Virus record (IMG/VR): IMGVR_UViG_3300049988_000286
Coordinates: 256,001-320,000 of that record
Origin: a virus
Taxonomy: Duplodnaviria; Caudoviricetes
Length of the DNA stretch: 64,000 bases
Direction: 5' to 3' (one strand)
Shown: positions 7,458 through 21,722 of the stretch, piece by piece
How positions within the stretch are numbered: position 1 is the stretch's first letter
Layout of the letters: the number at the start of each line of letters is the position of its first letter
Translations under genes and position numbers: made by a program
The notes under the pieces: generated by a model
Seen by the model: the letters and a program-made list of their open reading frames with translations, nothing else
The model's database searches: none
Told to the model about the DNA's origin: nothing

Positions 7458-8399
7458 ATGAGAAAATGGATCGACCTCCTCAACGAGAACGCAGAGGTGC
7501 ATCACAAGTCGTTCAAGAACGAGTTGGGCAACGAGATCGAAGCCCGCGTGACGAAGTACGATGACGGTCGCAAAGAGCCCGTGAAGCTGCAACTCATCGG
7601 TCCCGACTCGGAGTCGGAGAACGACATCACCACCAAGGAAGCAGAGGTGGTTCACGCCCTGTTGACCAATGCCCTCTATCCCGAGCAGCTAGAGGAAGAG
7701 GCGCTCGACTTCGACGATTCCCATTACAGGGATGAGCACGGCAGTCCCAATTACGAGACGCGCGCACACGCGGTCATCGCCTCGGTGAAGGACTTCGCTG
7801 GACCCCTCCCCATCACCGTTGAGTTGCAGCCCTACCGAAATTATTTTACCCACGCTGTGCAGGGTGTGACGCTGACCGATCTCTACGCTCGCGAACCCGG
7901 CTCCGGCACCGGCTCGGCGGTGATGCGCCACATGTGTGAGATCGCCGACCGTGCAGAGATCAACCTCTACACCGATCCCGAGGGACCGCGCTCCAAGGCC
8001 TTCTATGAGAAGTTTGGGTTCGAGCGCAACCGGAACAACTCCCCGATGCTGGTCCGATACGCGGACGTGCCGGTCTGGGATGACGATGAGGGATTGATGG
8101 AAGGCAGCACCCCCACCCTCTACCCCGCGATCAGGATCGGGCGTAAGCTCTTCACAGCGAGGGATCAGGGCGCGACGCACTTCGATGCCCTTGATCTCAT
8201 CACTGATCCACAAGCGCGCGGCGCTGCGATGCTCGACGGTGACAATCGCGGGTTCGTGGATGAGCGGGGCCGGTGGAAGAACCGTGCCAAGGCAGCCCAA
8301 TACGCGCGCGACTACCAGCTATTCGACACACAGCATCCCGAATACCGCGCTTGGATGAAGGACGCGTATGAACTCTCCTCGGAGACGCCGCTCCGATAA
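7458..8399 (+). CDS. Late multidomain protein with a GNAT acetyltransferase domain; probable internal head protein
   Basis: GSGTGSAVMRHM...AFYEKFGF GNAT motifs; leader MRKWIDLLNE; TAAATA 7448-7453 lies 4 nt before the ATG. Confidence 0.7.
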   Translation: MRKWIDLLNENAEVHHKSFKNELGNEIEARVTKYDDGRKEPVKLQLIGPDSESENDITTKEAEVVHALLTNALYPEQLEEEALDFDDSHYRDEHGSPNYETRAHAVIASVKDFAGPLPITVELQPYRNYFTHAVQGVTLTDLYAREPGSGTGSAVMRHMCEIADRAEINLYTDPEGPRSKAFYEKFGFERNRNNSPMLVRYADVPVWDDDEGLMEGSTPTLYPAIRIGRKLFTARDQGATHFDALDLITDPQARGAAMLDGDNRGFVDERGRWKNRAKAAQYARDYQLFDTQHPEYRAWMKDAYELSSETPLR

Positions 8400-8458
8400 T
8401 GGGGAAGATCGCCTCGTTCTAAATTGCAGCACAGGCAGGGATGAGGTAACTACCCTGA

Positions 8459-8926
8459 ATGGTTGACCTCACCCGCTTGTGCGCCCTCGCAACGACGATC
8501 ACCAAAGAATTCGGCACGAGGGCATTTCCCAGTCCCCACCATCTTTGCAACCGAGACGCATTGTTCGGCCCTTTGGAGATGCTGTCTTGGCTCGACCTGA
8601 CCAATGATGGCAGATACCAATATAGCACGCGCGGCATTGGTAGCCTTCACTACACATTCAAGCATGACATTGCCGAAGTCTATATTCGACACCAAGGACG
8701 CACCGAGCAACTGGGAAATAACTATAAGGTGCGATCGGGACCGTGGGAAGCCATGATCGAGGAGCACCTCTGCTGGTTCGAGGCTGATGTGGAAGCCGCT
8801 GTGATGATGCGGCAACAAGTCATTCGCGACGCCGAGGCGGCGCAGAAACAACATGAAGCAGATAGAGAGGTGGCTCATCAGCGAGCCTTGGTGGAGTTTT
8901 GGGAAGAATCGATCAAACCCGCGTGA
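8459..8926 (+). CDS. Hypothetical protein
   Basis: 155-aa ORF with a charged helical C-terminus. Confidence 0.6.
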   Translation: MVDLTRLCALATTITKEFGTRAFPSPHHLCNRDALFGPLEMLSWLDLTNDGRYQYSTRGIGSLHYTFKHDIAEVYIRHQGRTEQLGNNYKVRSGPWEAMIEEHLCWFEADVEAAVMMRQQVIRDAEAAQKQHEADREVAHQRALVEFWEESIKPA

Positions 8927-9206
8927 GATCGTCGGCGAACATCAGCCGGAACAGTGTCCAATCCTCCAAGGTGCGGAAACCAATCTCGCGCTTGTCCAGT
9001 CCCCGCGCATAGAAGGTGCAGGGAGCATAGCCGAGATTGTCCCACCCCCATATCGCATACCGCTCGTCGAGGATGAGTCGCATGTAGCGGTTGGCAGTAA
9101 GCATCCGCCATGGAATCTCTACCCAGATCGTGATGTCGGGATAGCCGTGCCGCCGCGTCCATGCGGAGAGGAAAGGTTCGTTGATCATCGATAGTTCATG
9201 AAGCAT
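8913..9206 (-). CDS. Small protein of the dispersed F-x-x-x-x-D-A-x-L family
   Basis: C-terminal IGFRTLEDWTLFRLMF. Confidence 0.6.
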   Translation of the reverse strand: MLHELSMINEPFLSAWTRRHGYPDITIWVEIPWRMLTANRYMRLILDERYAIWGWDNLGYAPCTFYARGLDKREIGFRTLEDWTLFRLMFADDLTRV

Positions 9207-9544
9207 AGCAGCGCGTCACTCTCATGCTTGAACGACATGCCCCAGAAACGAAGATTGCGCTCAATCGTCTTTGGGGTGATGTCGAGCATGTCGAGGAGCC
9301 ATTGCGTAACCTCCACACGACCATCCTCCGATAGATCGCAGTAATGACCTTCCGCGCTTACCTCGGACAACGAGACGATCCAGATATGATCTTCAACTTC
9401 GCTCATCCCGGTTGCAGTAACGCGATATGGACCAAACGATCCCCGGTTGCGAAAATGTCCCATCCCGGCTTGATAGATCAATGATGAAGTTCGGTCAAGG
9501 TGAAGCGAACGCGACACGGTGGTGATCAACTCCACTCCCCTCAC
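9185..9544 (-). CDS. Small protein of the dispersed F-x-x-x-x-D-A-x-L family
   Basis: C-terminal MSFKHESDALLCFMNYR. Confidence 0.6.
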   Translation of the reverse strand: MRGVELITTVSRSLHLDRTSSLIYQAGMGHFRNRGSFGPYRVTATGMSEVEDHIWIVSLSEVSAEGHYCDLSEDGRVEVTQWLLDMLDITPKTIERNLRFWGMSFKHESDALLCFMNYR

Positions 9545-9668
9545 GGGGGGTTGCGACTCGCGCCCGCTTCAATGCCGGGGTAGCGCAAACCCGCCAGATT
9601 GACAACATGGCGAAAATAATCCTTGCGCTAATCGTTTATCCGAACTATTGGAGAGGCAGGAGAACGAC

Positions 9669-9947
9669 ATGACCGACGACAACTTCATCGGCCCGCGCGA
9701 GCCCATCGATTGGCGCGCCCTGCTTCACTCTCACCTTCGTGACGCGATGGGCCTCACCCCCAGCGAGGGAAAGTCGTGGACGTTCGACCTGTCCGACACG
9801 GCTCCTGATCAGGTCTACCGTAAGGGTCGTGGTGGAACCGAATTGCGGCCTGTCGTCGTCGATGTTGTGCCCGGACTGGTGCTCATCATTACCGACGATG
9901 ACACGGACTACGCCACGCCGATGGAGACGATCGAGAATCGTCGCTGA
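9669..9947 (+). CDS. Hypothetical protein
   Basis: SD AGGAG before ATG MTDDNF; TAATCGTTTAT box upstream (9629-9639). Confidence 0.6.
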   Translation: MTDDNFIGPREPIDWRALLHSHLRDAMGLTPSEGKSWTFDLSDTAPDQVYRKGRGGTELRPVVVDVVPGLVLIITDDDTDYATPMETIENRR

Positions 9948-10093
9948 TGGCGCTCGCAGACGAAGATCGCGCCCGCTACGATCGCCTCCGCGCGCTCGAA
10001 AAGATCGCCCGTGATGAGCGCTCGGAGGCGGATCAGGCTGAAATCGATCTCCTCCTCGACGCCCTTCGGGAACGCTTCCCCGGCGCGTTCTGA
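9947..10093 (+). CDS. Small charged helical protein (48 aa, not in the ORF track)
   Basis: MALADEDRARYDRLRALEKIARDERSEADQAEIDLLLDALRERFPGAF; TGATG coupling with the upstream gene. Confidence 0.55.
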   Translation: MALADEDRARYDRLRALEKIARDERSEADQAEIDLLLDALRERFPGAF

Positions 10094-10112
10094 AAATTAT
10101 CATGAGAGACCT

Positions 10113-10349
10113 ATGAGCAAGATCGACACCACACTCGCCCGCGAGATCGCACGCCGCCTCCAGCAAGGCATCGTGCATCCCTCCATGGAAGCGGGGATCG
10201 CCCGCGCCATCGAAGTGATCGAGGCGACCTGTGCACACGCAGAGAAGGTAGAGCACTGGCACCGGTACGGTGGCGTCTACGTCTCGAAGGAAGCCGCCGA
10301 TGCAGAGAAGCTGCGACTTTCGAAGCCGAAGACCGATAAGCTGTTTTGA
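10113..10349 (+). CDS. Hypothetical protein
   Basis: MSKIDTTL... in an operon-like run. Confidence 0.6.
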   Translation: MSKIDTTLAREIARRLQQGIVHPSMEAGIARAIEVIEATCAHAEKVEHWHRYGGVYVSKEAADAEKLRLSKPKTDKLF

Positions 10350-10561
10350 CCATGAACGCCTTCTACGACGCTGCAACGACACGTCTGATCAGCGTCGCGG
10401 CGCTGGCAGTGATTAACCGCATCGAAACCAAGCAGATCAGCGTGGCTGAAGCCGATGCGGAGATCGACGCCATTGCGATCCGTTATCCCGGCGCAGAGCG
10501 TCAGCAGCGCTTCTATGCGGCGATGAAGGCACTCGCCCGCAAGGTCGATGATGTCGATTGA
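10346..10561 (+). CDS. Hypothetical protein
   Basis: 71-aa ORF whose start overlaps the upstream stop codon. Confidence 0.55.
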   Translation: MTMNAFYDAATTRLISVAALAVINRIETKQISVAEADAEIDAIAIRYPGAERQQRFYAAMKALARKVDDVD

Positions 10562-10586
10562 ATAATTTCGGACTTACAGCTATAAT
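10558..10586 (+). promoter_or_regulatory. Near-consensus sigma70 promoter
   Basis: TTGAAT (10558-10563)-17-TATAAT (10581-10586). Confidence 0.75.
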
Positions 10587-10592
10587 TGCTGG

Positions 10593-10730
10593 ATGACATC
10601 TGATGACATTAACAAAATATACGCCGATCTCTTCAAACTCGGGCGCGAAATGCTGGCCGATGAGGATTACTATGACGGGATCGGGTATTTTCGCGATGAA
10701 GCTTTGAAAGTATTAGCTCAACGCAAATAG
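10593..10730 (+). CDS. Small AT-rich leaderless protein (45 aa, not in the ORF track)
   Basis: MTSDDINKIYADLFKLGREMLADEDYYDGIGYFRDEALKVLAQRK; ATG at the expected +1 of the promoter above. Confidence 0.6.
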   Translation: MTSDDINKIYADLFKLGREMLADEDYYDGIGYFRDEALKVLAQRK

Positions 10731-10834
10731 AGCACGCATTTTTATCAACATGCTCGCGCGTAGCGATAATCATCTACTCACGCTGGCGTCACTACTGTGA
10801 GCGATGCGGCGTCTTACTGGGCAAACGTGGGCGG

Positions 10835-10875
10835 AAAAATAATTGTTGACACTGCACGACCCGCGCTAGAAACCA
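10835..10875 (+). promoter_or_regulatory. Early promoter with AT-rich UP element
   Basis: AAAAATAATTGTTGACAC (10835-10852), identical to 11604-11621. Confidence 0.7.
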
Positions 10876-10897
10876 CCGCTAACAAGGGTGGTAGCTG

Positions 10898-11611
10898 ATG
10901 CCGTGGCGATTTTCCAAACGTGTTAAGATCATGCCCGGAGTTACTCTAAACTTCGGTAAACGAGGTGTGTCGGCGTCGGTAGGTCCACGCGGCGCAAAGC
11001 TGAACTTTGGATCGAAGGGCGTGAGGGGCTCGGCTAGCATTCCCGGCACGGGCTTGAGCGCATCGACCATGCTCTACGGTCGAAAGAGGAGCCCATCGCC
11101 ACTCGGAACGCTCCTGTCTTCGCGGAAAAGTCCGTCACGCAGATTAGCTGGGTGTGGATCAGTTCTTGTTGGACTGGCGCTGCTTGGCCTTGTGTCAACC
11201 TGTATGCGCGGAGTTTCGTCATCACCAGAAGCTGCGGCGATCGTTGACATGCCAGCGCTTCTCGACGTTTCGGGCAAAGAGGCCCGAAGTGCCTTGGGTG
11301 CACCATCGGAATGCGACGTTTCAAAGAAGGGCGAGACTTGTCGCTATCGCTTCAAGGAGCGAGATGTAGAGCTTTACTTCCAACGCGGTGCGAGTGCGTC
11401 CGTTACGGTCAGCGGAGTAGATGAGCATTTCGGGTCGTCTTCGTTGCCGGTATTCGGAATCAGAGAGCGCACTCTGACCACCGCGACGCCGATCGTCATC
11501 AGAGCAGATACTACGGTGCGAGGCAAGGCCGCAGCAGTGAGCATGTTCCCACGGAAGGATAACCGTGTCGATTACGTCTATCTCAAAAAAGCGACATTGA
11601 ACAAAAAATAA
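10898..11611 (+). CDS. DUF4236-domain membrane protein
   Basis: N-terminal WRFSKRVKIMPGVTLNFGKRGVSASVGPRG...SIPGTGLS is typical of DUF4236; then a TM and a C-terminal extracytoplasmic domain. Confidence 0.75.
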   Translation: MPWRFSKRVKIMPGVTLNFGKRGVSASVGPRGAKLNFGSKGVRGSASIPGTGLSASTMLYGRKRSPSPLGTLLSSRKSPSRRLAGCGSVLVGLALLGLVSTCMRGVSSSPEAAAIVDMPALLDVSGKEARSALGAPSECDVSKKGETCRYRFKERDVELYFQRGASASVTVSGVDEHFGSSSLPVFGIRERTLTTATPIVIRADTTVRGKAAAVSMFPRKDNRVDYVYLKKATLNKK

Positions 11612-11644
11612 TTGTTGACACCCGCGACGCCCTGTGACTAAATA
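11604..11644 (+). promoter_or_regulatory. Promoter region of the tRNA cluster (TTGACA plus late TAAATA)
   Basis: TTGACA 11615-11620 with UP element; TAAATA 11639-11644. Confidence 0.65.
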
Positions 11645-11811
11645 AGTGCATGTCCACGATGACTCTCTCGACGCGAAAGCGCAAACGCCTCTAAAAGAGA
11701 GCCGCCATGCTGCGCGCTCTCGAAGCAGCCAGCGTGGGAGAGACGATCAGAGATCGTCGGTGTGACAATTCCCAGATTTTGCGCTGTGCTGCTCCCCAGA
11801 GAGGGTTGAGT

Positions 11812-11886
11812 AGGCCATTAGCTACAATTGGTCAGAGCGGCGGTCTCTTAAATCGCGGGTTGTGGGTTCGAGTCCCACATGGCCTA
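11812..11886 (+). tRNA. tRNA-Lys(CTT), no encoded CCA, acceptor stem extended to 21 bp
   Basis: Cloverleaf: acceptor AGGCCAT/ATGGCCT, anticodon arm GCGGT-ctCTTaa-ATCGC, T arm GTGGG-TTCGAGT-CCCAC. Confidence 0.8.
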
Positions 11887-11909
11887 CTCAACCCTCTCTC
11901 TACTTTGAT

Positions 11910-11986
11910 GGGTCCGTAGTTCAATAGGTTCAGAACAACCGGTTCTTACCCGGTATGTCCCCGTTCGAGTCGGGGCGGACTCACCA
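11910..11986 (+). tRNA. tRNA-Lys(CTT)
   Basis: Acceptor GGGTCCG/CGGACTC plus ACCA; anticodon arm ACCGG-ttCTTac-CCGGT; T loop TTCGAGT. Confidence 0.85.
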
Positions 11987-11998
11987 TCTCATCTTTGT

Positions 11999-12075
11999 GG
12001 GCGCATAGTTCAATAGGTCCAGAACAACCGGTTTTTACCCGGTATGTCTCCGTTCGAGTCGGAGTGCGCTTACCA
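11999..12075 (+). tRNA. tRNA-Lys(TTT)
   Basis: Acceptor GGGCGCA/TGCGCTT plus ACCA; anticodon arm ACCGG-ttTTTac-CCGGT; near-duplicate of 11910-11986. Confidence 0.85.
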
Positions 12076-12106
12076 TCACGCGCAAACGCCTATATGGACC
12101 CTTCCC

Positions 12107-12277
12107 ATGACCGACCCCACCATCCCCGACCTCTCCCTCCTCACCCTTGACCTAGAGATCGACCCGGAGGGCGACTCCGACTATCTCCGCGTCACGCTCC
12201 GCTACGATGGCGAGACCCTGACCAGCGATTCGGTGCAGTTGCCGAGACGGCGTGACTCCGCGTCGTACTACTACTAA
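12107..12277 (+). CDS. Small acidic hypothetical protein
   Basis: MTDPTIPDL... directly after the tRNA cluster. Confidence 0.55.
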   Translation: MTDPTIPDLSLLTLDLEIDPEGDSDYLRVTLRYDGETLTSDSVQLPRRRDSASYYY

Positions 12278-12282
12278 CAGTC

Positions 12283-12595
12283 ATGATCGATAGTACCACT
12301 CTGGTCGGATCGTACCGAGATTTAGCTGCCATCCTCTACTCGCTGTTTCGAACAGAATGTGAGATGATACTGCCTTCAAGACGTAGGCGGGTAAACTCTG
12401 GCATCTACGTATAAATTTGCGTGCCAAGGATATTCGATTGCAGTGTTGACTTCTATTCGGGATGGGACATGTCCTGTTCGCCGCTATTACCTTCGATTCA
12501 GCAATGCGGTTGTAGTTTGCGAGGAAACCGCTCAAAAAGGCATGATGCTGCTTCGAGGCGATGACCATACCCTCACGCTGGCATCGCTCCTCTAA
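12283..12595 (+). pseudogene. Frameshifted first member of the GDEH-LTLA array
   Basis: The frame from ATG 12283 stops at 12412-12414; the +1 frame reads ...RYYLRFSNAVVVCEE...LLRGDDHTLTLASLL* to 12595. Confidence 0.6.
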
Positions 12596-12632
12596 CCCTT
12601 GACCCCATAGTTCGCCCCTGCTATGCCGAGCC

Positions 12633-12920
12633 ATGGCCCCAGAATTCCATCTACTCGTTCGCCTGATCCGCCAAGCCAAATCGCTGGACCTTGGTCGCTC
12701 CCGGCGGCTAGGCCCGTGGGGCGAGGCGCTCGCGCACTCTTTGGTGGGTAGCGGTTATGCCTTGATGGTCTTCTCGCTCTGGAAAGGCGATGTGCCGCTC
12801 GGGCACCGTCACTACCTCCGGTTCAATGGCATGTTGTTGGTCATCGATGAGAGCGGTGGGGGTGATTTCTCGTATCGGCGCGGCGACGATCATACCTTCA
12901 CTTTAGCGGCACTGCTATGA
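12633..12920 (+). CDS. GDEH-LTLA array paralog
   Basis: RHYLRFNGMLLVIDE...YRRGDDHTFTLAALL*; TTGACC-17-TATGCC promoter just upstream. Confidence 0.75.
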   Translation: MAPEFHLLVRLIRQAKSLDLGRSRRLGPWGEALAHSLVGSGYALMVFSLWKGDVPLGHRHYLRFNGMLLVIDESGGGDFSYRRGDDHTFTLAALL

Positions 12921-13192
12921 CCGACGCTATTTTCCACCGGTTGATCAAGCAGTTATGCGCTAGCACGATCTTTGTTTCCACCAGAGCCTTGAAGGATGGC
13001 GAAATTCGTCTTTATTCTAAAGATGCGGGACACTATAGCGTGCACATCATTTCTACGCGTCTACTGGATCGTTTCGCCTATCGTTACAATATCTGCTTCT
13101 CTGGCCACCGCGTCGCGATTGCGATGTCGCAGGGTGGCTTGCGGCTAGTGCACGGTGACGAGCACGCCCTCACCTTGGCGGCACTGCTATGA
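12917..13192 (+). CDS. GDEH-LTLA array paralog
   Basis: RYNICFSGHRVAI...LVHGDEHALTLAALL*; ATGA overlap. Confidence 0.75.
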   Translation: MTDAIFHRLIKQLCASTIFVSTRALKDGEIRLYSKDAGHYSVHIISTRLLDRFAYRYNICFSGHRVAIAMSQGGLRLVHGDEHALTLAALL

Positions 13193-13503
13193 TCGATCTC
13201 GAAGCCCTCATGGACCGTCTCACCTCCACAACGCCAGTGCGCGTTAGTGAGAGGGATGGTAAGAGGAAGCTCTTCGGTAATCGTCACCGCCTATACTGCT
13301 ACGGGGGCAGTGACGGTAGCTTCTGCCTCTTCTGCACAACCGTTGACAGTTTTAATGGTACTTCTTGTCACTATCGGTACAATCTTGTCTTCTCGGGGGA
13401 GCGACTGGTTATTGAGGTGAGGTTTGATCGGCCAACTGATAAGCGGACCTTCACGATGATCCGGGGCGATGATCACGTCCTCACTTTGGCAGCCCTCCTT
13501 TAG
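13189..13503 (+). CDS. GDEH-LTLA array paralog
   Basis: RYNLVFSGERLVIEV...MIRGDDHVLTLAALL*. Confidence 0.75.
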   Translation: MIDLEALMDRLTSTTPVRVSERDGKRKLFGNRHRLYCYGGSDGSFCLFCTTVDSFNGTSCHYRYNLVFSGERLVIEVRFDRPTDKRTFTMIRGDDHVLTLAALL

Positions 13504-13538
13504 CTTGACCGTTGAGGTTAAGTAGATCATACGACAGT

Positions 13539-13856
13539 ATGGCACGCACACTTTGCCCGCTTGGACGGATGGTCGAAGACCTTGGGTCGCGCCATGCCGC
13601 GACGCCAGTCACGGGCAAGGCACAAAGGCAGTTCAGGGGTGGGTTGGTCAATCGTCTTCGTATCATTGCCGATGTCTACACCTTGGTAGGCCTGACGCAG
13701 CGGAACGAGAAAGGGGCCGTGATCGCCCATCGCTACCACATCCGCTTTTCCGGATATTGCGTCACCGTTGAGGAAATACTTCACGGCTATGGTCTATCCA
13801 GCTTTCGCCTCTACCGTGGCGACGATCATGCCCTCACCCTCGTGGCGCTATTGTGA
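13539..13856 (+). CDS. GDEH-LTLA array paralog
   Basis: RYHIRFSGYCVTVEE...LYRGDDHALTLVALL*; start revised to ATG 13539 behind TTGACC 13505-13510. Confidence 0.75.
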   Translation: MARTLCPLGRMVEDLGSRHAATPVTGKAQRQFRGGLVNRLRIIADVYTLVGLTQRNEKGAVIAHRYHIRFSGYCVTVEEILHGYGLSSFRLYRGDDHALTLVALL

Positions 13857-14125
13857 TGGAGATATCACCCGATCATATCCTTTTGCGGCGGATACGCGGC
13901 ACAGCGCAGTTCAAACTCATCGGTCGTCGAGGAATCTTTTCCCTGTATCGTAGCGACAGTCTGGTAGGCGCGTATATCCATTACCTCTATTACGGACTGG
14001 TCCGATATAGATACAATATTGTCCTTGATGGTTGCCGCGTAGTAATCAAGGCCGATCCAGAAACGGATCACTACACGCTCGTCCACGGTGATGAACACAC
14101 CCTCGTGCTCGCCTCCCTACTCTGA
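13853..14125 (+). CDS. GDEH-LTLA array paralog
   Basis: RYNIVLDGCRVVIK...LVHGDEHTLVLASLL*. Confidence 0.75.
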   Translation: MMEISPDHILLRRIRGTAQFKLIGRRGIFSLYRSDSLVGAYIHYLYYGLVRYRYNIVLDGCRVVIKADPETDHYTLVHGDEHTLVLASLL

Positions 14126-14163
14126 CGATTGACCGTAGAGTTCGGCAATGATAGAGGCGGGGT

Positions 14164-14520
14164 ATGAGTATGTTCTCCGCCCTCCGCCGCGCGATATTCG
14201 GTCCTTGCATCCCCGTTCCGGCAACCCCGGCGGAATCGGAAGTGATGGTCGAAGACATCACGCCCATCTACCTCGACATCGAGACCGATCGTGGCACCTA
14301 CCGCTGTCACAAGTGCTCGCAGATGCGCGCCGGGGAGATTATCCACATGCCAGATGGTGTGGGCCAGTTTGGCGACACGGGCGAGCATCTCGTCGAGGTC
14401 ATGCGCTACCATCAGGCATCGTGGAACACTCATTCATCGGGATGGTGTGTCGCGTGTGTGCGCAAGATCATCGCGCGCAACTCGCTTCAGCGCTTCTTCG
14501 TCCTGCGGCGTCGCGGGTGA
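14164..14520 (+). CDS. Hypothetical protein with CxxC pairs (possible Zn binding)
   Basis: CHKC and CVAC; TTGACC-17-TAGAGG promoter ends 6 nt before the ATG. Confidence 0.6.
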   Translation: MSMFSALRRAIFGPCIPVPATPAESEVMVEDITPIYLDIETDRGTYRCHKCSQMRAGEIIHMPDGVGQFGDTGEHLVEVMRYHQASWNTHSSGWCVACVRKIIARNSLQRFFVLRRRG

Positions 14521-14855
14521 GGTTTCCGCGCATCACCGAGAAGGTATTGCTGGCGCGTGGTGTGGACATTGATCACCGCCACCACATCTTCCGTGTCTTC
14601 GATCAGATGCGTCTTGGCTGGCAAGAGCGCCAGCCGATTGTTTCGAGAGGCTGCACCCTTTACCGCTACAGCGATGGGGTGAACCACTATTGCGAGTTGT
14701 TCTTCTACGTGCACCACACAGTATTTGTTCGAGCCTCCCTCATTATGCAGGGCTTGCCCCGGATAGTCATCATCGAGCGGACGAATGCAATTGAGAACGG
14801 TTGCCGTCTCGTCCAAGGTGATGAACACGCTCTTGCACTGGCGACGCTGCTATGA
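14517..14855 (+). CDS. GDEH-LTLA array paralog
   Basis: GTG 14517 overlaps the upstream stop; ends LVQGDEHALALATLL*. Confidence 0.7.
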   Translation: MRFPRITEKVLLARGVDIDHRHHIFRVFDQMRLGWQERQPIVSRGCTLYRYSDGVNHYCELFFYVHHTVFVRASLIMQGLPRIVIIERTNAIENGCRLVQGDEHALALATLL

Positions 14856-15139
14856 TTTCCATGACGATGCCGCAAAGTCGGCGCTGTGCCGTCACCCTGA
14901 ACGGGCGAGAAATTGTCTTGCGCAAAGGCGAGCACGCCGTGTTGGAACTGCTTTTACTCGCCCGCCCGCATCCTTTATCCACGGAGCGTATCATCGACCT
15001 CCTCTGGCCCATTGCTGATGACGAGCCAGAGTGTGTCCGGCGGACTATCCAGATACGGCTGGCGCGGTTACGCCATCGTGGCTTCCCCATTTCGAAGTGG
15101 GAACTTGCCGGTTATCGCATCGTGGGAGATCAAGCATGA
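14852..15139 (+). CDS. Standalone OmpR/PhoB-type winged-helix DNA-binding protein
   Basis: VLRKGEHAVLELLL...PLSTERIIDLLW...VRRTIQIRLARLRHR...GYRI matches the Trans_reg_C pattern. Confidence 0.7.
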   Translation: MISMTMPQSRRCAVTLNGREIVLRKGEHAVLELLLLARPHPLSTERIIDLLWPIADDEPECVRRTIQIRLARLRHRGFPISKWELAGYRIVGDQA

Positions 15140-15450
15140 ACATGGCGGATTTTATGAAGCGTGGCGAGGATGATCGTCGCATTGATCAATGTTTATTCGA
15201 TCACCTCGCGGACAGCGTGCGGGAGGTAGTGATCAAGCCCGAGAGGGCCTTGGAAGTAGTGGAGGGGCAGAGCTACACCCTCTGGATCACATCCGTGAAC
15301 TTCGGTTCCTCCACTCTAGCCCGGTTCAATCTCCTGTTCGCGGGCGGGCGACTTGTCGTCGAAGGGTTTGGAGAAAAGGATGACGAGGAGCCGGTCATCC
15401 GTTTGATCCGGGGCAGTGATGAAGAGATCATGCTCGCCAAGCTATTATGA
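15136..15450 (+). CDS. GDEH-LTLA array paralog (divergent)
   Basis: RFNLLFAGGRLVVEG...LIRGSDEEIMLAKLL*. Confidence 0.7.
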   Translation: MNMADFMKRGEDDRRIDQCLFDHLADSVREVVIKPERALEVVEGQSYTLWITSVNFGSSTLARFNLLFAGGRLVVEGFGEKDDEEPVIRLIRGSDEEIMLAKLL

Positions 15451-15734
15451 CCCGCAATCTGCACATCATCCTCCAAGGTGAGCAGACCGCGCTTGCGATG
15501 ACGATCCTCGACATGCGGGCACAAGGACTCCCGTTCCTCGTCTACTCTCGTCGCTGGACGGCCCTTTTCGGTATAGTAGGTCGAGTCATTTCATCTCGTC
15601 TGCTGGCAGCAGCAGAGTACTCGATCGCGCTGGGTAAGTATCAGGGGTTGATGATCAGGCGACACGATCTCGAACTGGTCAAGCTGCTATCGCGGGTTTC
15701 TGTCACGATCGAGGGATCGGAGCGGAGGCGGTGA
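15447..15734 (+). CDS. G(I/L)PF-family small protein
   Basis: NLHIILQG...MRAQGLPFLVY...IRRHDLELVKL, similar to 19129-19392 and 19389-19646. Confidence 0.6.
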   Translation: MTRNLHIILQGEQTALAMTILDMRAQGLPFLVYSRRWTALFGIVGRVISSRLLAAAEYSIALGKYQGLMIRRHDLELVKLLSRVSVTIEGSERRR

Positions 15735-16045
15735 CTGAAGAGGAATTCGCACTGCGGCCCGGCCGCGTTATCGAACGTGATTGGTGGCATCGGATCGGCG
15801 ATCTCATGGATCGTACCGGGATGGTGCGTGAGGTGAAGTTTTCGCAATCGCTGCGCTGCGGACTAGAGACCTACCGCAATGACGATCACATAATCTTCTG
15901 TCTAGATATTAGCAACCTCGATCGCTACAGCGTCACCTTCCCCGGCGGGCGCGTGGTGTTTGAATTCCTACACCGCTATCCCGAGATTCACGCGCGCGTT
16001 GTCGTCGGTGAGGATCAACTCACACTGCTCGCCCTGTATCTGTGA
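15731..16045 (+). CDS. GDEH-LTLA array paralog (divergent)
   Basis: RYSVTFPGGRVVFEF...VVVGEDQLTLLALYL*. Confidence 0.7.
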   Translation: MTEEEFALRPGRVIERDWWHRIGDLMDRTGMVREVKFSQSLRCGLETYRNDDHIIFCLDISNLDRYSVTFPGGRVVFEFLHRYPEIHARVVVGEDQLTLLALYL

Positions 16046-16224
16046 GGGGGTGTCGCGGTGGCTGCTGGACTCTAACCAGCTTACCTTCCGTCCAGTGGCT
16101 GCTCATTTACGCGGGGCATGTCTCCCGCTAGCGCTTTCTTCCACCGCAACGACTACCGTTTACCAGATTTTCCGCACCACGCAAGTAAATTGTTTTCGCA
16201 ATCATAGTCGGCTATAACACCACG

Positions 16225-16488
16225 ATGCCGCTACGCGCCATCGATGTTGTTCCCCGCGACGCCTACGTGGTGTCGTGGTTTCCGTCATGCCGAGCGTGGC
16301 GGGTGTTGTTCGGCTTCGAGCGCGGTATCTATGATAGCTTGGATGCGTGGCTGGCAGAGAACGGCATCTCTGCCGACAACGTATCGATCAGCCGATGCAG
16401 TGCGTCGTTCGACAGTCAACTCGACGCTTTGCTTTGCTATTGGGCCTTCCGCGAGGTAAAGCGCTGCGATGACCCAAGCGGAACTTGA
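16225..16488 (+). CDS. Small protein of the dispersed F-x-x-x-x-D-A-x-L family
   Basis: ASFDSQLDALLCYWAF; TTGTTT-17-TATAAC promoter ends 6 nt before the ATG. Confidence 0.65.
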   Translation: MPLRAIDVVPRDAYVVSWFPSCRAWRVLFGFERGIYDSLDAWLAENGISADNVSISRCSASFDSQLDALLCYWAFREVKRCDDPSGT

Positions 16489-16777
16489 TCTCTATGGCTT
16501 GATGGAAGCTGCCGCGAAGGCGGCGAAGCGCGATTCGTCCCTGTATATGAAGCACTGGTCAGAGCGCGGTCTATTTTTGCGGCGGTACCGTCACATGACC
16601 TTTATTCGCCGCTGGTATGAGCGTGATCAACGCGTCGATCGTCATATCTTCACCGTTGGGGGCGCGCGAGTAGTAGTCGATGCGTTCGTTGGTAAAGTCG
16701 ATGGTATTATGACGCTGCGTAGCGTGCGTCTCACGAGGGGGCAGGAGAGTGACCTCGTGCTTGCCGCTTTGCTGTGA
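16469..16777 (+). CDS. GDEH-LTLA array paralog (divergent)
   Basis: RHIFTVGGARVVVDA...LTRGQESDLVLAALL*. Confidence 0.7.
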   Translation: MTQAELDLYGLMEAAAKAAKRDSSLYMKHWSERGLFLRRYRHMTFIRRWYERDQRVDRHIFTVGGARVVVDAFVGKVDGIMTLRSVRLTRGQESDLVLAALL

Positions 16778-17142
16778 ACATCGAGGCGGCGCTTGAGCGG
16801 TATTGGGAAGCCGCGCGTCCTCACCCTGCGGTCAACGAAGCTTTGGTGAAGAGAATAATGCGCTTGAGTGCGGGCAATCCTTATCAGGAGCGCCGCGCTT
16901 ATGTAGGACGCTCGATATGGCACCACGATCTTCGCACCCTGCATATGCAATGGTGGTATCGCGACGATTGGACCACGGGAGAGCGAATACAATTTCGACG
17001 TTTCAACATCGTGCTTCATTGCGCGCACCGGCTAGTGGTCATCAATCGAAATTATCGCGCGTGTTGGCCATCAGATATCACGGGTGAGTATCGGCTCGTT
17101 TTCGGTGATGAGCACAGTCTGACCATGGCGTCGCTGCTATGA
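16774..17142 (+). CDS. GDEH-LTLA array paralog
   Basis: RFNIVLHCAHRLVVIN...LVFGDEHSLTMASLL*. Confidence 0.7.
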   Translation: MNIEAALERYWEAARPHPAVNEALVKRIMRLSAGNPYQERRAYVGRSIWHHDLRTLHMQWWYRDDWTTGERIQFRRFNIVLHCAHRLVVINRNYRACWPSDITGEYRLVFGDEHSLTMASLL

Positions 17143-17390
17143 AGGTGACACAGGAATTGATACAGAAGTTTGTGACTACTTGCACCAAGGATCACAAACG
17201 GGGCATTTGGGGAATGCGAACCTTCCGACAAGGAGCAAGCACGACCTTCCTTATCCACCAGAGCCCCCGCCGTTGGGCGCGGTATGTCATACGCTTTAAC
17301 GATGAACGACTTGTCGTTGAGTTTCGCGACGAGGAGTTCCACGTTCGCAGTGGCGGGGAAGATGTAGTCGTGCTAGCACACTTGGTCTAG
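17139..17390 (+). CDS. GDEH-LTLA array paralog (divergent)
   Basis: RYVIRFNDERLVVEF...VRSGGEDVVVLAHLV*. Confidence 0.7.
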   Translation: MKVTQELIQKFVTTCTKDHKRGIWGMRTFRQGASTTFLIHQSPRRWARYVIRFNDERLVVEFRDEEFHVRSGGEDVVVLAHLV

Positions 17391-17399
17391 GAGACTGCG

Positions 17400-17804
17400 A
17401 TGAACCCCGCCAACACTGATCCGACCGTCACCAAAGCCATCGAGGCGCTCGGTGATCCATACGCCACCTTGATGCTCCGCATGTTGGAGGGATGGGTGGT
17501 CGATTGGAACAAAACCAGCGACAAGGATACGCGCTCTTCCTTCCTCGCGGTCACAGGCGGAAACCAAGTTCATGCCGCGATCCTCGATCTCATGGGTCAC
17601 TGGGGCAACGATCTCGCCTCCATCGCGGAAGAGGCCTATGGTCTGCGGATCGTCAATGAAGCCGGGATCGAACTGATGGGCAGCGACACGAGCCGCTACG
17701 TCGCTACCGGCGAGCACATCCATGTCGAGCTTGTCCCCGTGGGTGAGCAAGCGTATTTCGAACGTCGTGGCTGGGCTTGGCCAGCGGAACAGGAAGATCA
17801 GTGA
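17400..17804 (+). CDS. Hypothetical protein
   Basis: 134-aa ORF with an SD-like GGAG upstream. Confidence 0.65.
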   Translation: MNPANTDPTVTKAIEALGDPYATLMLRMLEGWVVDWNKTSDKDTRSSFLAVTGGNQVHAAILDLMGHWGNDLASIAEEAYGLRIVNEAGIELMGSDTSRYVATGEHIHVELVPVGEQAYFERRGWAWPAEQEDQ

Positions 17805-18388
17805 TGCTCAACAGTTTCTATCGCTCGCTCGTGCCCGTCTCGCTGCCCTTCCGGGGGCGGGATCGCTACATGCATGGCTTCGACCTTGCCGCGCCCCGGA
17901 TGGCGGAAGGTTTCGAGGACTACCTCGAACCCGTGACTGCATTGTGCCGCGCCGCCGGGGCGTTGGTGGGTAAGGCCTATATGACGGTGGACGAGAAGAT
18001 CGTTCAGCCGGGCCGTAGCCAGCGGCGACCGGGACCGCATGTCGATGGCCAGTTTCTGCCAGAGAGCGCGTCGTGGGGCCACGATGGCGGCGGCGGTTGG
18101 AACCACATCTGCAACAACGTCCCGATGGCGAGGATGCCGGTCATTGTCGCGGCATCGGCGGTAGGATGCCGGGTGTGGGATGGCGACTTCGATGCTCAAC
18201 CAGCCCCTGATGGCGATCTCTCCCATATCGTTGATCGCCTCGGAGAGGGTGAGATCGTTCCGGCGGGGATGGGCTATCTCCTGTCGCCGGATTGTGTCCA
18301 TGAGAGCATGGTGTTCGAGGCTCCGACGCAGCGTAGCTTCCTCCGCATCGCGCTACCGATCGCGTTTGGCGAGGCGATGCGGCGCTGA
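17804..18388 (+). CDS. Possible 2OG-Fe(II) oxygenase/cupin-like protein
   Basis: RRPGPHVDG (HxD), distal CVHES, then RSFLRI, consistent with an HxD...H...R triad. Confidence 0.45.
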   Translation: MLNSFYRSLVPVSLPFRGRDRYMHGFDLAAPRMAEGFEDYLEPVTALCRAAGALVGKAYMTVDEKIVQPGRSQRRPGPHVDGQFLPESASWGHDGGGGWNHICNNVPMARMPVIVAASAVGCRVWDGDFDAQPAPDGDLSHIVDRLGEGEIVPAGMGYLLSPDCVHESMVFEAPTQRSFLRIALPIAFGEAMRR

Positions 18389-18831
18389 TGGACTGGCGCG
18401 CCTTCAGGGATGAGCGACCGCAGGGGAGTGGCACGGTGCTGCTCTCCACTGCGTCGGGGTGGACTCGACTGGCGTCAGCCAACGCGATCCCCGATGATGG
18501 CGTGTTGGACGGCATCGTTTTCGTGCACTTCTGTTACATCGATCACCCCTATTCGATCCCTGACGAGCACGACTTCTCCTCCATCTGTCTTCTCAATGAT
18601 GGCGCAGCAGATGACAAGGTGCTCGCGCTGCGGGAAACCTTGGCACCAATGGGGCTAGCGGAAACGTGGTTAGAGTTCATCGCCGAGGGGAGGCTCTTTC
18701 TCGGTCAAGCGAGAAGCACCGAGACTTGGATGTGCAGCAACGATTTCGTTCTCGTTGCAAAGACCGATAGTGAACTCACGCTTGCCGTCATCGTAATCGG
18801 TAATCCCGCGACTGCTATCAACGATGCGTGA
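18388..18831 (+). CDS. Hypothetical protein
   Basis: 147-aa ORF coupled by TGATG. Confidence 0.6.
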   Translation: MDWRAFRDERPQGSGTVLLSTASGWTRLASANAIPDDGVLDGIVFVHFCYIDHPYSIPDEHDFSSICLLNDGAADDKVLALRETLAPMGLAETWLEFIAEGRLFLGQARSTETWMCSNDFVLVAKTDSELTLAVIVIGNPATAINDA

Positions 18832-19138
18832 TCTGCGTTTTCGCATCCGCCTCGTCGATATGGACGTGCCGATGGAGCGTGAGCGGTGCAGCGATCGATT
18901 TCTTGCGCGCGAGTTGTTTGACCGAACGGCGTTGAGTGCTTTCTTGCAAGAAACGCGTTCATCGTATTTCTTGTCGCAAGTCGTGAGTAGCAACTTCACG
19001 CCCTCGTATAACATCGGTGGGGGTGTTGTTCAGCTTAACACAGCGTTGATCATCTATGCGATCTTCATCGCCAAGGTCACTGATGTCAACGAGGTGCTAT
19101 TGCGCCTTGATGAATATGAAGGCGTGACTTGGTTGTGA
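18824..19138 (+). CDS. Hypothetical protein
   Basis: 104-aa ORF in the same run. Confidence 0.55.
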   Translation: MRDLRFRIRLVDMDVPMERERCSDRFLARELFDRTALSAFLQETRSSYFLSQVVSSNFTPSYNIGGGVVQLNTALIIYAIFIAKVTDVNEVLLRLDEYEGVTWL

Positions 19139-19392
19139 ACATAGTGATAGAGATCACTGGTACTTACTGTGATGTTGCGGCCAGTCTTGCAGCGTTGAGG
19201 CGATCGGGCATACCGTTCATCGACTACCGGCGCGTGGGCTCGCGAGCCATCGTCGAGGACTTTGAAAAATATGCATCATTGGCAAGTTGGACAGTCGAGG
19301 TTCGCTACACGATTCGTGAGCGGGATTTTGATCTAGCCCGTCTTGCGTGCACCGCCACCACGAGAATCAGTGAGCCGTGGCCAATTGAATGA
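19129..19392 (+). CDS. G(I/L)PF-family small protein
   Basis: NIVIEITG...RRSGIPFIDY...IRERDFDLARL. Confidence 0.65.
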   Translation: MVVNIVIEITGTYCDVAASLAALRRSGIPFIDYRRVGSRAIVEDFEKYASLASWTVEVRYTIRERDFDLARLACTATTRISEPWPIE

Positions 19393-19646
19393 ATATCACC
19401 ATCTCGCTGATCGGTAACTCCAAGAGTATAGGCGGATCGATGAAGTCGTTCCGGCGCGCCGGTATTCCCTTCCTCTACTTTTCAAACCTTAATCGGACAG
19501 ATGTGCCAAGATATGTCGTTGGTTCGCGCACGCTCATTCGTAAATGGTCGAAGCGAAACCTTGTGAACCGCTACGAGTGCCGGGTAATGATCAGGGAGCG
19601 TGATTACGCTGTCGCCGTCTTGGCTGCAAAGTCATATACTAGGTAA
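19389..19646 (+). CDS. G(I/L)PF-family small protein
   Basis: NITISLIG...RRAGIPFLYF...IRERDYAVAVL. Confidence 0.65.
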   Translation: MNITISLIGNSKSIGGSMKSFRRAGIPFLYFSNLNRTDVPRYVVGSRTLIRKWSKRNLVNRYECRVMIRERDYAVAVLAAKSYTR

Positions 19647-20718
19647 TGATCTGAATCATCTCTGGCGGGATTGTGCCCTGATATGCGATCTGGGCGAAGT
19701 CAGAGAGGGAGTGCCGCCAGTCGCGCGGATCAGCGGGAGTGCCCGCGCGAGCCATCTTCCCCATGTAATCGTCATCGGCGAACAGGTGCTTGAACTCGCG
19801 TCGCGGTAGAACGATCTGGAGAATGACGGGCTCGATCTTGTCCGCGTGTCCGCGCAGCTTCTCGATGATCTCTTTGGCTCGTGTGGCCTTCTCCAGTTTG
19901 TCCTGCCACTTCGCCCGCTCTTTGTCGGTCTTCGCATACGGGATGCTGTTGCGCGCAAAGCCCTCGTTCCCACGGGCGGTAGCCCAGCCGTGGTAGGACA
20001 GGCGGCGGCGATCAACCTGTGTGGCCTTCCGGGCGTAATAGTCGGCTTGGTTGCGACTGGCGGTTAGGTAAATGCAGTCGGCGCGATGATCGGGGGAGTT
20101 CTTGTCTTTGTTCCAGACCCGCTGACTCGCCGACAAGGGAGCAAGGCCTTCCTCCATGATCACCTTCGCGCGAGCATTCGAGGTGCCGTGGTAGAGGATA
20201 AGGCGGCTGGGTGTCTGCGCGGTGTTGAGGATCGCGGAAACTGACCCCATGAGATCACCGTCCTCGTCCCGACGAGCCCAATTGCCGACAAAGACGGGAG
20301 TGCGGGCATTGACGATATCGAGGTCGAGCAACCGGGCCACGATGGTGCGGATATCCTCGGAATAGCGATTGCGATTACCGTTCCAAGACGGGCCTTCGCG
20401 CCACAACCCGATCTGCACACCCTTGGGGGTAAAGCGGATCATCAAGGTGTCGTCCTGCACGCTGGTGTCCATCTCGCGTCGAACCATCTGCATGACGCCC
20501 TCGCCCTGACCGGGATCGTCGTGGGTGCTCCACGGAATGCGATTCTCCTTGCCGTGATTGAAGCTTCCGCCGGGATAGGCGAAGATGATCGCGCCGTGAT
20601 CCTTGGTGAGGACGACGTGCGTCTCCTGATTGGGAGTCTTGCCGGTGCGGAGATCAATGACGCGGTTGCTGCCCGGATGATCCAGCATCACGCGCTCAAA
20701 GAGTTGTTGTAGTAGCAT
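19639..20718 (-). CDS. Late protein with an ADP-ribosyltransferase-fold domain (HGT class); probable internal head protein
   Basis: LYHGTS...IMEEGL...IYLTASRNQADYYA...VILQI...GTIPPEMI; leader MLLQQLFE; TAAATA (20728-20723) lies 4 nt before the ATG. Confidence 0.65.
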   Translation of the reverse strand: MLLQQLFERVMLDHPGSNRVIDLRTGKTPNQETHVVLTKDHGAIIFAYPGGSFNHGKENRIPWSTHDDPGQGEGVMQMVRREMDTSVQDDTLMIRFTPKGVQIGLWREGPSWNGNRNRYSEDIRTIVARLLDLDIVNARTPVFVGNWARRDEDGDLMGSVSAILNTAQTPSRLILYHGTSNARAKVIMEEGLAPLSASQRVWNKDKNSPDHRADCIYLTASRNQADYYARKATQVDRRRLSYHGWATARGNEGFARNSIPYAKTDKERAKWQDKLEKATRAKEIIEKLRGHADKIEPVILQIVLPRREFKHLFADDDYMGKMARAGTPADPRDWRHSLSDFAQIAYQGTIPPEMIQIIT

Positions 20719-20764
20719 CGCTTATTTATTGCGAACTATCACGCAGTTAGAGCATGGTCCCTGC

Positions 20765-20938
20765 ATGAAGACTGATAAAGAACTCATCGAGGAGTATCTC
20801 GCCGCCGGTGGCACTGTCACCCGCCTCCCTTCCACCCGCGTCAATCGCGATGACCTTATCCCCAAGGCGACCAAGGATCAGCAAATCCTTGACGACCTCA
20901 TCCGGCGCGCCGGGGTGGATGATGTCCTCGGAGGCTAA
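20765..20938 (+). CDS. Small phage protein (EYLAAGGTVTRLP type)
   Basis: MKTDKELIEEYLAAGGTVTRLPS, a motif I recall as common in large-phage small proteins. Confidence 0.55.
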   Translation: MKTDKELIEEYLAAGGTVTRLPSTRVNRDDLIPKATKDQQILDDLIRRAGVDDVLGG

Positions 20939-21176
20939 TGCATGGCGGGCCAGCATCGCGTGGGCGAAGATGACCACCACGGCATGGGACTTGGAACAGA
21001 TGCGCGCCCGGCTTGACCGGGAAGGCCCGCCCCTCCATCCCACCGCGAAGGAACAAGCAGCGATCGAGATTCTGGCGAGGGGATTGGTGTGAACTGCTCT
21101 CTCCGAGGAACTACCAGCGTCCGCCTTTACTTCGGATAATATCGCAACCTTGGTATCGTTGTGATATTCATATTGG

Positions 21177-21184
21177 TATAAATA
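21177..21184 (+). promoter_or_regulatory. T4 gp55-type late promoter TATAAATA
   Basis: Exact T4 late consensus at the head of the structural run. Confidence 0.75.
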
Positions 21185-21199
21185 TCGCAATGGAGAATA

Positions 21200-21475
21200 G
21201 TGGTGAATAGTAGCAATGGTGCAGCGGGTCATTTTGAACCCGAGGTCACTCACACGTTCCTGCCCGGTTGTCGGGAGTGTGGTGGCTCGCATCCTTTGGC
21301 CCGCAAGCCCCAGCAGTCGCCTGATCGCTGCCCCGATTGCGGTGCCCCCGCTGGAAAGATCGGGCCGACGATCCGCGAAGGCGCGGTGCTGTCGGGATAT
21401 TCCCCCGCTGCTCTGTTCAGCCGTGCCACGCTCGCAATCGGTGCAGCGTTGACCAACCTTTCGAAGAGGATTTAA
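21200..21475 (+). CDS. Zn-ribbon protein
   Basis: CRECG...CPDCG. Confidence 0.6.
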   Translation: MVNSSNGAAGHFEPEVTHTFLPGCRECGGSHPLARKPQQSPDRCPDCGAPAGKIGPTIREGAVLSGYSPAALFSRATLAIGAALTNLSKRI

Positions 21476-21479
21476 CCAA

Positions 21480-21713: not shown

Positions 21714-21722
21714 AGGAGCCAA

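Follow-up and report, generated by a model that had tools for sequence, protein, structure and literature searches.

Twelve small, deeply diverged paralogues in an old tandem array of a giant leaf-metagenome myophage

Why does a giant phage carry, on one strand and within a few kilobases, a dozen small genes whose products end almost alike, and has this array arisen recently or long ago? The question is raised by positions 12283-17390 of a 64,000-nucleotide (nt) stretch of DNA (hereafter the window, to which coordinates refer unless the genome is named), comprising bases 256001-320000 of the 499,572-bp IMG/VR virus record IMGVR_UViG_3300049988_000286, which is rated complete. The DNA comes from a leaf metagenome, and two other studies, one of them a phyllosphere metagenome according to its record, contain parts of it as well. 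That the virus is a giant myophage is shown by its PHROG matches to tail sheath and virion proteins; its sheath protein shows only 34-40% identity with its counterparts in Sinorhizobium phage Phosso and Agrobacterium phage Atu_ph07, and its kinship to these cultured phages, judged by that protein, is therefore apparently distant. The upstream part of the window holds tRNAs and many small open reading frames (ORFs) on the same strand, and structural genes first appear at about 33 kb. A preliminary description of the array, made from its sequence, had proposed an accordion-like expansion of genes with variable N-terminal specificity domains and a constant C-terminal docking element. We find instead an old family of genes that arose by duplication and divergence under purifying selection, and we discuss what its members may do.

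The array (family 1) comprises 11 intact ORFs of 83-122 amino acids and one truncated or frameshifted copy, and all copies share the ending G-(D/E-rich)-x-L-x-L-A-x-L-L. A profile of the family matched exactly 12 places in the 499,572-bp genome, all of them in the array (E 2.6e-29 to 3.4e-17), and 11 of the 12 matches begin at profile position 1-6 and run through to 97, which puts the family match far beyond chance. The same 12 places were returned by a local hmmsearch with filters off, in which the next-best genome ORF had E 0.14, and ten copies had been called independently as proteins in a public protein collection. Twelve members in 5.1 kb also qualify as a jumbo-phage tandem array, defined as at least three adjacent same-strand homologues in a genome of more than 200 kb. 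The eleven C-terminal strings quoted in the preliminary description are all present in the ORF translations where it had placed them, and the twelfth, GDDHTLTLASLL, ends copy 1. Its claim of a paralogous, expanded family with a strongly conserved C-terminus, specific to this phage, is one on which the profile and database searches agree.

All copies lie on the + strand. Copy 1 (12283-12595) is broken, which reduces the twelve ORFs originally counted to eleven intact ones: only its last 63 codons are in frame, the profile (positions 33-97, E 3.4e-17) matches 12404-12592 only, a GTG stands at 12443 within this in-frame part, and the ORF 12283-12414 runs in a different frame. At about 104 codons in all, it would suit a full copy that has been frameshifted, with no detectable N-terminal homology. 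The ORF list and the family profile give copy 2 (12633-12920, 95 amino acids, ending GDDHTFTLAALL), copy 3 (12917-13192, 91 amino acids, ending GDEHALTLAALL), copy 4 (13189-13503, 104 amino acids, ending GDDHVLTLAALL) and copy 6 (13853-14125, 90 amino acids, ending GDEHTLVLASLL); copies 3 and 4 each begin in an ATGA overlap with the preceding copy, and copy 6 in a GTGA overlap. Copy 5, supported by the ORF list and a database gene call, has 105 amino acids from its likeliest start, ATG 13539 (13539-13856, ending GDDHALTLVALL); the longest ORF starts at TTG 13512, the database gene call at 13569, and another strain has lost 1 nt at 13526, upstream of ATG 13539. Copy 7 (14517-14855, 112 amino acids, ending GDEHALALATLL) starts at a GTG in a GTGA overlap, as in the database gene call P0001. 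The profile and database gene calls agree on copy 8 (15136-15450, 104 amino acids, ending GSDEEIMLAKLL), copy 9 (15731-16045, 104 amino acids, ending GEDQLTLLALYL), copy 10 (16469-16777, 102 amino acids, ending GQESDLVLAALL) and copy 11 (16774-17142, 122 amino acids, ending GDEHSLTMASLL). Copy 12 (17139-17390, 83 amino acids, ending GGEDVVVLAHLV) is supported by the profile and by AlphaFold2. The array is truly contiguous only for copies 1-6; copies 7, 8 and 9 are each split off by an unrelated small ORF, and another such ORF precedes copies 10-12. The coupling of most copies by ATGA or GTGA was correctly described, nine junctions being 4-nt overlaps, and the other gaps between genes are 8-38 nt.

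Is the family already known under another name? A profile search for relatives, as the preliminary description had suggested, matched no characterized family and found no member outside the strains of the window. With all copies scanned, the best match in Pfam had E 0.021, under its cut-off, and the best in PHROGs E 0.18; in NCBIfam a single member reached E 0.0018 to RimP, with nothing common to several members, and a sequence profile search of the PDB gave at best E 0.065. An exhaustive hidden Markov model (HMM) search of 1.84 billion representatives (~15 billion proteins) recovered only ten proteins, all from the window, and word-seeded profile searches of 5.8 billion clusters recovered only the window's own proteins. 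No family 1 homologue was found by blastn and tblastn against 50,697 cultured phage records, nor any member by an HMM search of Phosso and Atu_ph07, by peptide-pattern and DNA-motif scans of IMG/VR, by DNA-motif and peptide scans of JGI metagenomes, or by a DNA-motif scan of GTDB genomes. Beyond the window, members turned up only in strain-level relatives from two sequencing runs. Judged by these searches, family 1 is a new family of ~100-residue proteins, apparently restricted to this phage lineage.

How old, then, is the array? Pairwise amino-acid identity among the copies is 17-39%, and the maximum-likelihood tree is a star whose end branches measure 0.25-3 changes per site, only copies 1, 2 and 5 grouping, weakly. 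The longest exact DNA repeat in the array is 15 nt, and there are no long direct repeats. That 15-nt identity, GCGGCACTGCTATGA (12906-12920 and 13178-13192), was confirmed as the sole near-exact repeat, and the reported conservation of the 3' ends in DNA is near-exact in this pair only, other 3' ends being 60-74% alike over 61 nt. Strain-level relatives of the phage are represented in sequencing runs of the two other studies (X2 and X3) by short, low-depth contigs of 300-900 nt, which we aligned over 8000-22000, leaving uncovered parts (e.g. 17.8-19.7 kb in X2 and copy 1 in X3) out of the comparison. These contigs cover copies 3 and 7-12, together with the interspersed ORFs, at 88-98% nucleotide identity, and gene order is kept wherever a contig bridges genes (15251-15641, 15680-16152, 16206-16811 and 16521-16837). 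No deletion joint was found inside the array in these two samples, whose contigs are short and leave copies 1-2 uncovered or unlike. Divergence between the strains amounts to 2-12% per piece in the array (highest in copy 3), which is close to the 5-8% of the neighbouring small genes at 8-10.6 kb and exceeds the 1-2.5% at 20-21.6 kb. One contig around copy 3 is flanked on both sides by unlike sequence, and the copy 1 region is poorly covered or unlike in both other samples; the array may be somewhat mosaic at its 5' end.

These data bear directly on the suggestion that the array is a recent genomic accordion or the product of an active diversifying system, i.e. a diversity-generating retroelement (DGR) or an integron. 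Its tandem head-to-tail order and conserved 3' ends would suit such an origin, and its location beside tRNA genes recalls the amplification that SegB drives at the tRNA locus of phage T6 (Chihara et al., 2026, PMC13096335). The expected near-identical units are absent, the best DNA repeat and the 3' ends being as given above, and identity is low, the tree star-like and the order, wherever contigs bridge genes, the same in two other samples. The statement that no reverse transcriptase or integrase is present in the window can now be extended to the whole genome, in which neither RVT_1 (PF00078; control genomes matched) nor Phage_integrase (PF00589) found a match, so that neither a reverse transcriptase nor a tyrosine integrase is at hand. 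Nor was a DGR pair of template and variable repeats found, as there are no long direct repeats and the copies differ along their full length; for attC sites of an integron there is no room, nine junctions overlapping by 4 nt and the others leaving gaps of 8-38 nt. By its repeats, identities, tree, order and lack of both enzymes, a recent or active origin is already contradicted and is highly improbable. The same evidence on divergence, repeats and joints speaks against the accordion-like expansion of the preliminary description.

Could such old copies simply be neutral baggage, duplicated ORFans drifting in a genome with spare packaging capacity? Copy 1 is broken, the family has no homologue outside the lineage and its divergence is extreme; moreover, tandem duplication has been proposed to fill the larger capsids of jumbo phages (Hua et al., 2017, mBio, PMC5646251). 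Against this, 11 of the 12 frames are open despite saturating divergence, the fold-defining motifs are conserved in all copies and the 4-nt overlaps are kept. The strain comparison likewise shows indels that keep the frame (+6 at 15376, -3 at 15606, -1/-5 at 15839/15849 and -1/+1 at 12721/12725) and differences that favour third positions: with 40 of the 621 strain differences listed, codon position 3 holds 10 of the 15 listed in copies 3 and 11 (binomial P 0.0085). GC content at codon positions 1/2/3 is about 0.6/0.4/0.65 in the copies, as in the phage's structural genes. We therefore regard neutral baggage as improbable: the copies are kept as genes, as frame-keeping indels, third-position bias and GC by codon position attest. 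Taking divergence, star-like tree, conserved order, frame-keeping indels, third-position bias and the lack of RVT_1 and integrase matches together, family 1 is an old birth-and-divergence family under purifying selection, and not a current accordion, DGR or integron.

What kind of protein has been kept? AlphaFold2, given an alignment of the 11 intact paralogues, modelled copy 4 with a mean predicted local distance difference test score (pLDDT) of 81 and a predicted template modelling score (pTM) of 0.72, with helix H4-13, strands E31-40, E43-53, E59-68, E71-80 and E85-92 and helix H95-103. Copy 12, the most divergent, yielded the same order of elements (pLDDT 68, pTM 0.52), which speaks for the common fold on which the preliminary description depended. 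Each copy is thus predicted to be one compact domain, in which a five-strand antiparallel meander is preceded by one helix at the N-terminus and followed by another at the C-terminus. In the model, the R-Y-x-I-x-F-x-G-x-R-V-V stretch forms the strand 3-4 hairpin, and G-D-(D/E)-H-x-L-T-L-A-x-L-L the last turn and C-terminal helix. By group conservation, this last turn (0.86) and helix (0.80) stand out; strands 3-5 reach 0.5-0.6, and strands 1-2 with the N-terminal helix 0.35-0.5. The N-terminal halves, described earlier as unrelated, prove to be related: the profile aligns over the full length, the N-terminal helix has a common motif, and most indels fall in this half. Indels concentrate in the linker from the helix to strand 1, the strand 2-3 loop and the strand 4-5 loop. 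By the topology of the model, these three indel-rich connections would lie at one pole of the domain, with the fixed-length strand 3-4 and strand 5-helix turns at the opposite pole.

Comparisons of the predicted fold with known structures gave background-level scores throughout. The best Foldseek match in the PDB had E 0.12, and the best matches among AFDB clusters, BFVD and AFDB Swiss-Prot models E 0.016, 0.015 and 0.098, respectively; VIA wide returned at best Z 7.6, to unrelated sheets and at its stated background level. The ESM Atlas returned mixed matches, also at background level, which we disregarded, the Atlas's own model of copy 4 being poor (pLDDT 0.47). Weak matches included the Ivy lysozyme inhibitor (1gpq), monellin/cystatin, SRPBCC/START-like proteins and capping protein. 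Ivy and cystatins are protein-binding inhibitors. The likeness of all these to family 1 is confined to a general antiparallel sheet packed by one or two helices, with background-level scores (Foldseek E 0.1-0.3, TM 0.3-0.48; TM 0.3-0.44 for the Ivy and cystatin/monellin folds), and we claim no membership of these folds.

The model also changes the meaning of the conserved end. Conservation in the family peaks in the last five residues, with L/A/x/L/L in at least 90% of copies, and the preliminary description had separated them, as a constant docking element, from a variable N-terminal specificity domain. This division finds no support in the model, in that the C-terminal helix follows the last strand within one compact domain; structural constraint is accordingly the simpler reason for conservation, and the end is most simply read, on the model, as part of the fold and not as a separate docking tail. 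Just ahead of the last helix, the acidic residues differ between copies (GDDH, GDEH, GSDEE, GEDQ, GQESD and GGED), as a helix N-cap would, and four copies lack the histidine of the ending, which speaks against a catalytic or metal site.

Non-polar C-termini are known as Clp degrons, as in the ssrA tag and ClpX C-motif 1. The phage encodes Clp proteins of its own, namely a ClpP (CLP_protease, E 7e-61), a 422-residue ClpX-like ATPase with an N-terminal CxxC…CxxC, and a 752-residue two-domain ClpA/B-like ATPase, whose genes lie outside the window, at (listed in genome order) genome 85633-86901 (+), 92532-93131 (+) and 250322-252580 (-). The end of family 1 could hence be imagined as a Clp recognition or docking signal, the copies being short-lived early proteins or adaptors that bring targets to the protease; the near-invariance of the last five residues, their similarity to the LAA-COOH of the ssrA tag and the presence of ClpP, ClpX-like and ClpA-like proteins in the genome would fit. 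Yet the C-terminus is a helix after the last strand in both models, with a pLDDT of 83-91 for this block in copy 4, and not a flexible tail, and the preceding acidic residues look like a helix N-cap. We therefore consider a Clp signal unlikely.

Can the array be expressed as a set of units? Four TTGACC occurrences were found on the + strand of 12000-17500, three of them in the three short intergenic gaps, and paired with the next ATG at 12599/12633, 13505/13539 and 14129/14164, i.e. with a spacing of 34-35 nt. The corresponding promoter-like elements, all on the + strand and read from the sequence, are TTGACC-N17-TATGCC (12599-12627, 34 nt before the ATG of copy 2), TTGACC-N17-CATACG (13505-13533, 34 nt before ATG 13539) and TTGACC-N17-TAGAGG (14129-14157, 35 nt before ATG 14164); a fourth, TTGTTT-N17-TATAAC (16190-16218, 35 nt before ATG 16225), stands in the sole long gap of the array (179 nt). 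None of these four starts has a Shine-Dalgarno sequence, and the box-to-ATG geometry points to putative promoters that would give leaderless mRNAs. Of the internal sigma70 promoters proposed earlier, promoter-like restarts in the gaps are thus retained, but their -10 boxes are weak and a standard scan calls none of them. The sites at 12599-12614 and 14129-14144 share TTGACC-N2-A(T/G)AGTTCG. A motif TTGAC(C/A/G)-N2-A(T/G)AGTTCG with a weak -10 recurs ahead of small genes at genome 374146 and 374674 (+) and 107764 (-), and may represent a phage-specific class of early or middle promoters. Terminator-like sites in the region all lie inside ORFs and are no commoner than in shuffled sequences, and an L-x-E processing motif, looked for by eye, is not common to the N-termini of the copies.

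On these signals, five units are likely: the tRNAs, a 56-residue ORF and copy 1; copies 2-4; copies 5-6; a Cys-rich ORF, copy 7, a winged-helix ORF, copy 8, the ORF x1 and copy 9; and the ORF x2 with copies 10-12, possibly continuing into the next genes. Chained by ATGA or GTGA overlaps, the genes within a unit are probably translationally coupled. The first unit begins with three tRNA-Lys genes (CTT, CTT and TTT; 11812-12075, +, identified by ARAGORN) directly upstream of the array, preceded by a promoter-like TTGACA-N18-TAAATA (11615-11644, +) that is read from the sequence and was not called by the standard scan. No terminator-like site lies between these tRNA genes and copy 1, and co-transcription is possible. 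The statement that the array begins right after the tRNA cluster is correct in general, although an acidic ORF of 56 residues intervenes (12107-12277, +, from the ORF list; isoelectric point, pI, 4.05; family profile E 3). Just upstream of the tRNA promoter, one X3 contig lacks 804 bp at 10800-11605, with 38 other letters instead, and the related X3 strain is thus without the DUF4236 gene (10898-11611).

Besides this 56-residue ORF, four small non-member ORFs lie in the region, all on the + strand. Two of them, translationally coupled into the array, encode a Cys-rich protein (14164-14520, 118 amino acids, CxxC…CxxC, without a match to the family profile) and a stand-alone winged-helix protein of the OmpR/PhoB type without a receiver domain (14852-15139, 95 amino acids; Trans_reg_C, PF00486, E 8.8e-6, 26.1 bits against a cut-off of 26.2). 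With such partners, the copies could themselves be small nucleic-acid-binding proteins, whether transcription factors or structural binders. Nine of the 12 copies have a pI of 8.4-10.2, an arginine is invariant in strand 3 and another conserved in strand 4, the Trans_reg_C and CxxC…CxxC ORFs are coupled to copies 7 and 8, and the same role, as specific transcription factors or DNA-binding proteins, has been proposed for a ~35-copy zinc-ribbon expansion in Bacillus phage G (Iyer et al., 2021, Viruses, PMC7824862). Weighing on the other side, the searches revealed in the copies no known fold or motif for binding DNA or RNA, copies 8 and 9 are acidic (pI 4.7 and 5.5, respectively) and net charges are modest, only +2 to +7. 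We judge a nucleic-acid role to be a serious contender, if a rather unlikely one.

The other two interspersed ORFs lead to further expanded families. In an all-against-all comparison of genome ORFs, x1 (15447-15734) fell into a second family (family 2), with 32% identity in blastp (E 5e-7) to genome 342869-343234 and a leave-one-out profile E of 2.4e-12. Proteins of family 2 have ~90 amino acids and the motif RxQGIPF…SSR…VRERDLxLVRL; its main array, at genome 341.7-348.2 kb, holds about 20 back-to-back copies, and about 30 ORFs fall below E 1e-4 genome-wide, three of which are in the window (15447-15734, 19129-19392 and 19389-19646). Diverged relatives occur as ten tandem copies on a 2.9-kb Logan contig, and a nearly identical counterpart of this phage's array is present on the 1841-bp contig SECT01001256.1 of an Oxalobacteraceae metagenome-assembled genome (GCA_004144765.1), which is probably a mis-binned fragment of a closely related phage. 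Family 1 is absent from both contigs. The ORF x2 (16225-16488; leave-one-out profile E 1.8e-7) belongs to family A, with the motif W[LC]xxN…FxxxxDAxLFxL, the largest of the three families, for which an iterated profile recruits about 60 ORFs; they are dispersed (e.g. 28000-28299, 28287-28532, 28999-29295, 40090-40347 and 42057-42404 in the window), and one, at genome 347104-347349, sits within the family 2 array. A jackhmmer search from a single family A seed found nothing.

Families 2 and A resemble family 1 in occurring in the same genome, in gene size, in their ATGA-coupled arrays and in lacking annotation. Family 1 differs in being confined to one locus, with no diverged relatives in other phage contigs, whereas family 2 has such relatives. 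All three end similarly, in a strand, acidic residues and a hydrophobic helix. A common origin through these endings was considered and rejected, hhalign giving a probability of <2% and no cross-hits appearing at E<=10, and the families are for this reason treated as separate. Three genome ORFs (347104-347349, 340181-340471 and 340462-340743) and the N-terminus of x1 were likewise rejected as remote members of family 1 by hhalign and hmmsearch, x1 being a member of family 2. It has also occurred to us that the twelve copies might form a Clp-linked library, in which the variable pole binds host proteins and the constant end delivers the target or effector to the protease, and that the two larger families, with about 100 further genes, might use their similar endings likewise; this is a speculation to which we attach little probability.

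What, finally, are the copies for? In T4-like phages, regions of tRNAs and small ORFs (hyperplastic regions) hold early host-takeover genes, and the array occupies a similar position, which supports the reading that we put forward, tentatively and at somewhat less than an even chance: an old expansion that provides a panel of early-expressed small binders, each for a different host or competitor factor, in takeover or counter-defence. A ~100-residue protein would have undergone ancient tandem duplication and divergence, with no active diversifying mechanism; its single scaffold would present a variable face, formed by three variable loops at the same pole; four or five units, each opened by a TTGACC or TTGTTT box 34-35 nt before an ATG, would supply the copies; and every copy, made early in infection, would have a target of its own among host or competitor factors. 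The single scaffold with its variable pole, the upkeep of many deeply diverged copies and the presence of two other expanded ORFan families nearby point in this direction. Several findings count against a binder panel. The variable pole is argued from the topology of a predicted model based on only 11 paralogues, not from coordinates. The basic pI of most copies fits nucleic-acid as well as protein binding and is unlike that of typical acidic DNA-mimic anti-defence proteins, and two neighbours in the array look like DNA binders, which makes a nucleic-acid role a serious rival. No RNA run was found to contain the stretch, the putative promoters match only 3 of 6 positions in their -10 boxes, and a sigma-70 scan of the + strand of 11500-19000 found no site, as did a second promoter scan of the + strand at >=9/12 matches. 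The strain comparison, for its part, rests on short low-depth contigs, with 40 of 621 differences listed.

Arrays of this kind are not without precedent. In jumbo phages G and 121Q, tandem arrays of >30 'very similar' genes have been read as duplication that expands the genome (Hua et al., 2017); like family 1, these are head-to-tail paralogues in giant myophages, but the copies of family 1 are only 17-39% identical, have no homologue elsewhere and are interleaved with other families. The zinc ribbons of phage G (Iyer et al., 2021) are likewise small proteins expanded in one jumbo phage, with a function that is only guessed; they have a recognizable zinc-ribbon fold, whereas family 1 has neither a metal-binding motif nor a recognizable fold relative. 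Accordion-type amplification has been described for the counter-defence gene tifA of phage T4 (Srikant et al., 2022, PMC9391042) and discussed for large phages in general (PMC13359090). The accordions of T4 and T6 share with family 1 the tandem multiplication of viral genes and the thought of counter-defence, and that of T6 also lies at a tRNA locus. The K3L gene of poxviruses is a further example of a genomic accordion, to which the same likeness applies. Accordions are recent, near-identical and variable in copy number; the family 1 array is ancient and divergence-saturated, with an order that, wherever contigs bridge genes, is stable across three samples. The array is thus of a known kind, that of jumbo-phage paralogue arrays, and what is new is the family itself, its deep divergence and its interleaving with other families.

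The size of giant phages owes much to genes of unknown function, and the array illustrates one route to it, namely old tandem duplication followed by deep divergence of tiny single-domain proteins. With only three small scaffolds, families 1, 2 and A together account for >100 genes and about 6% of the genome. If the copies are indeed host-directed binders, they would constitute a natural library of small protein inhibitors and would offer a testable model of how megaphages cope with diverse hosts or defences.

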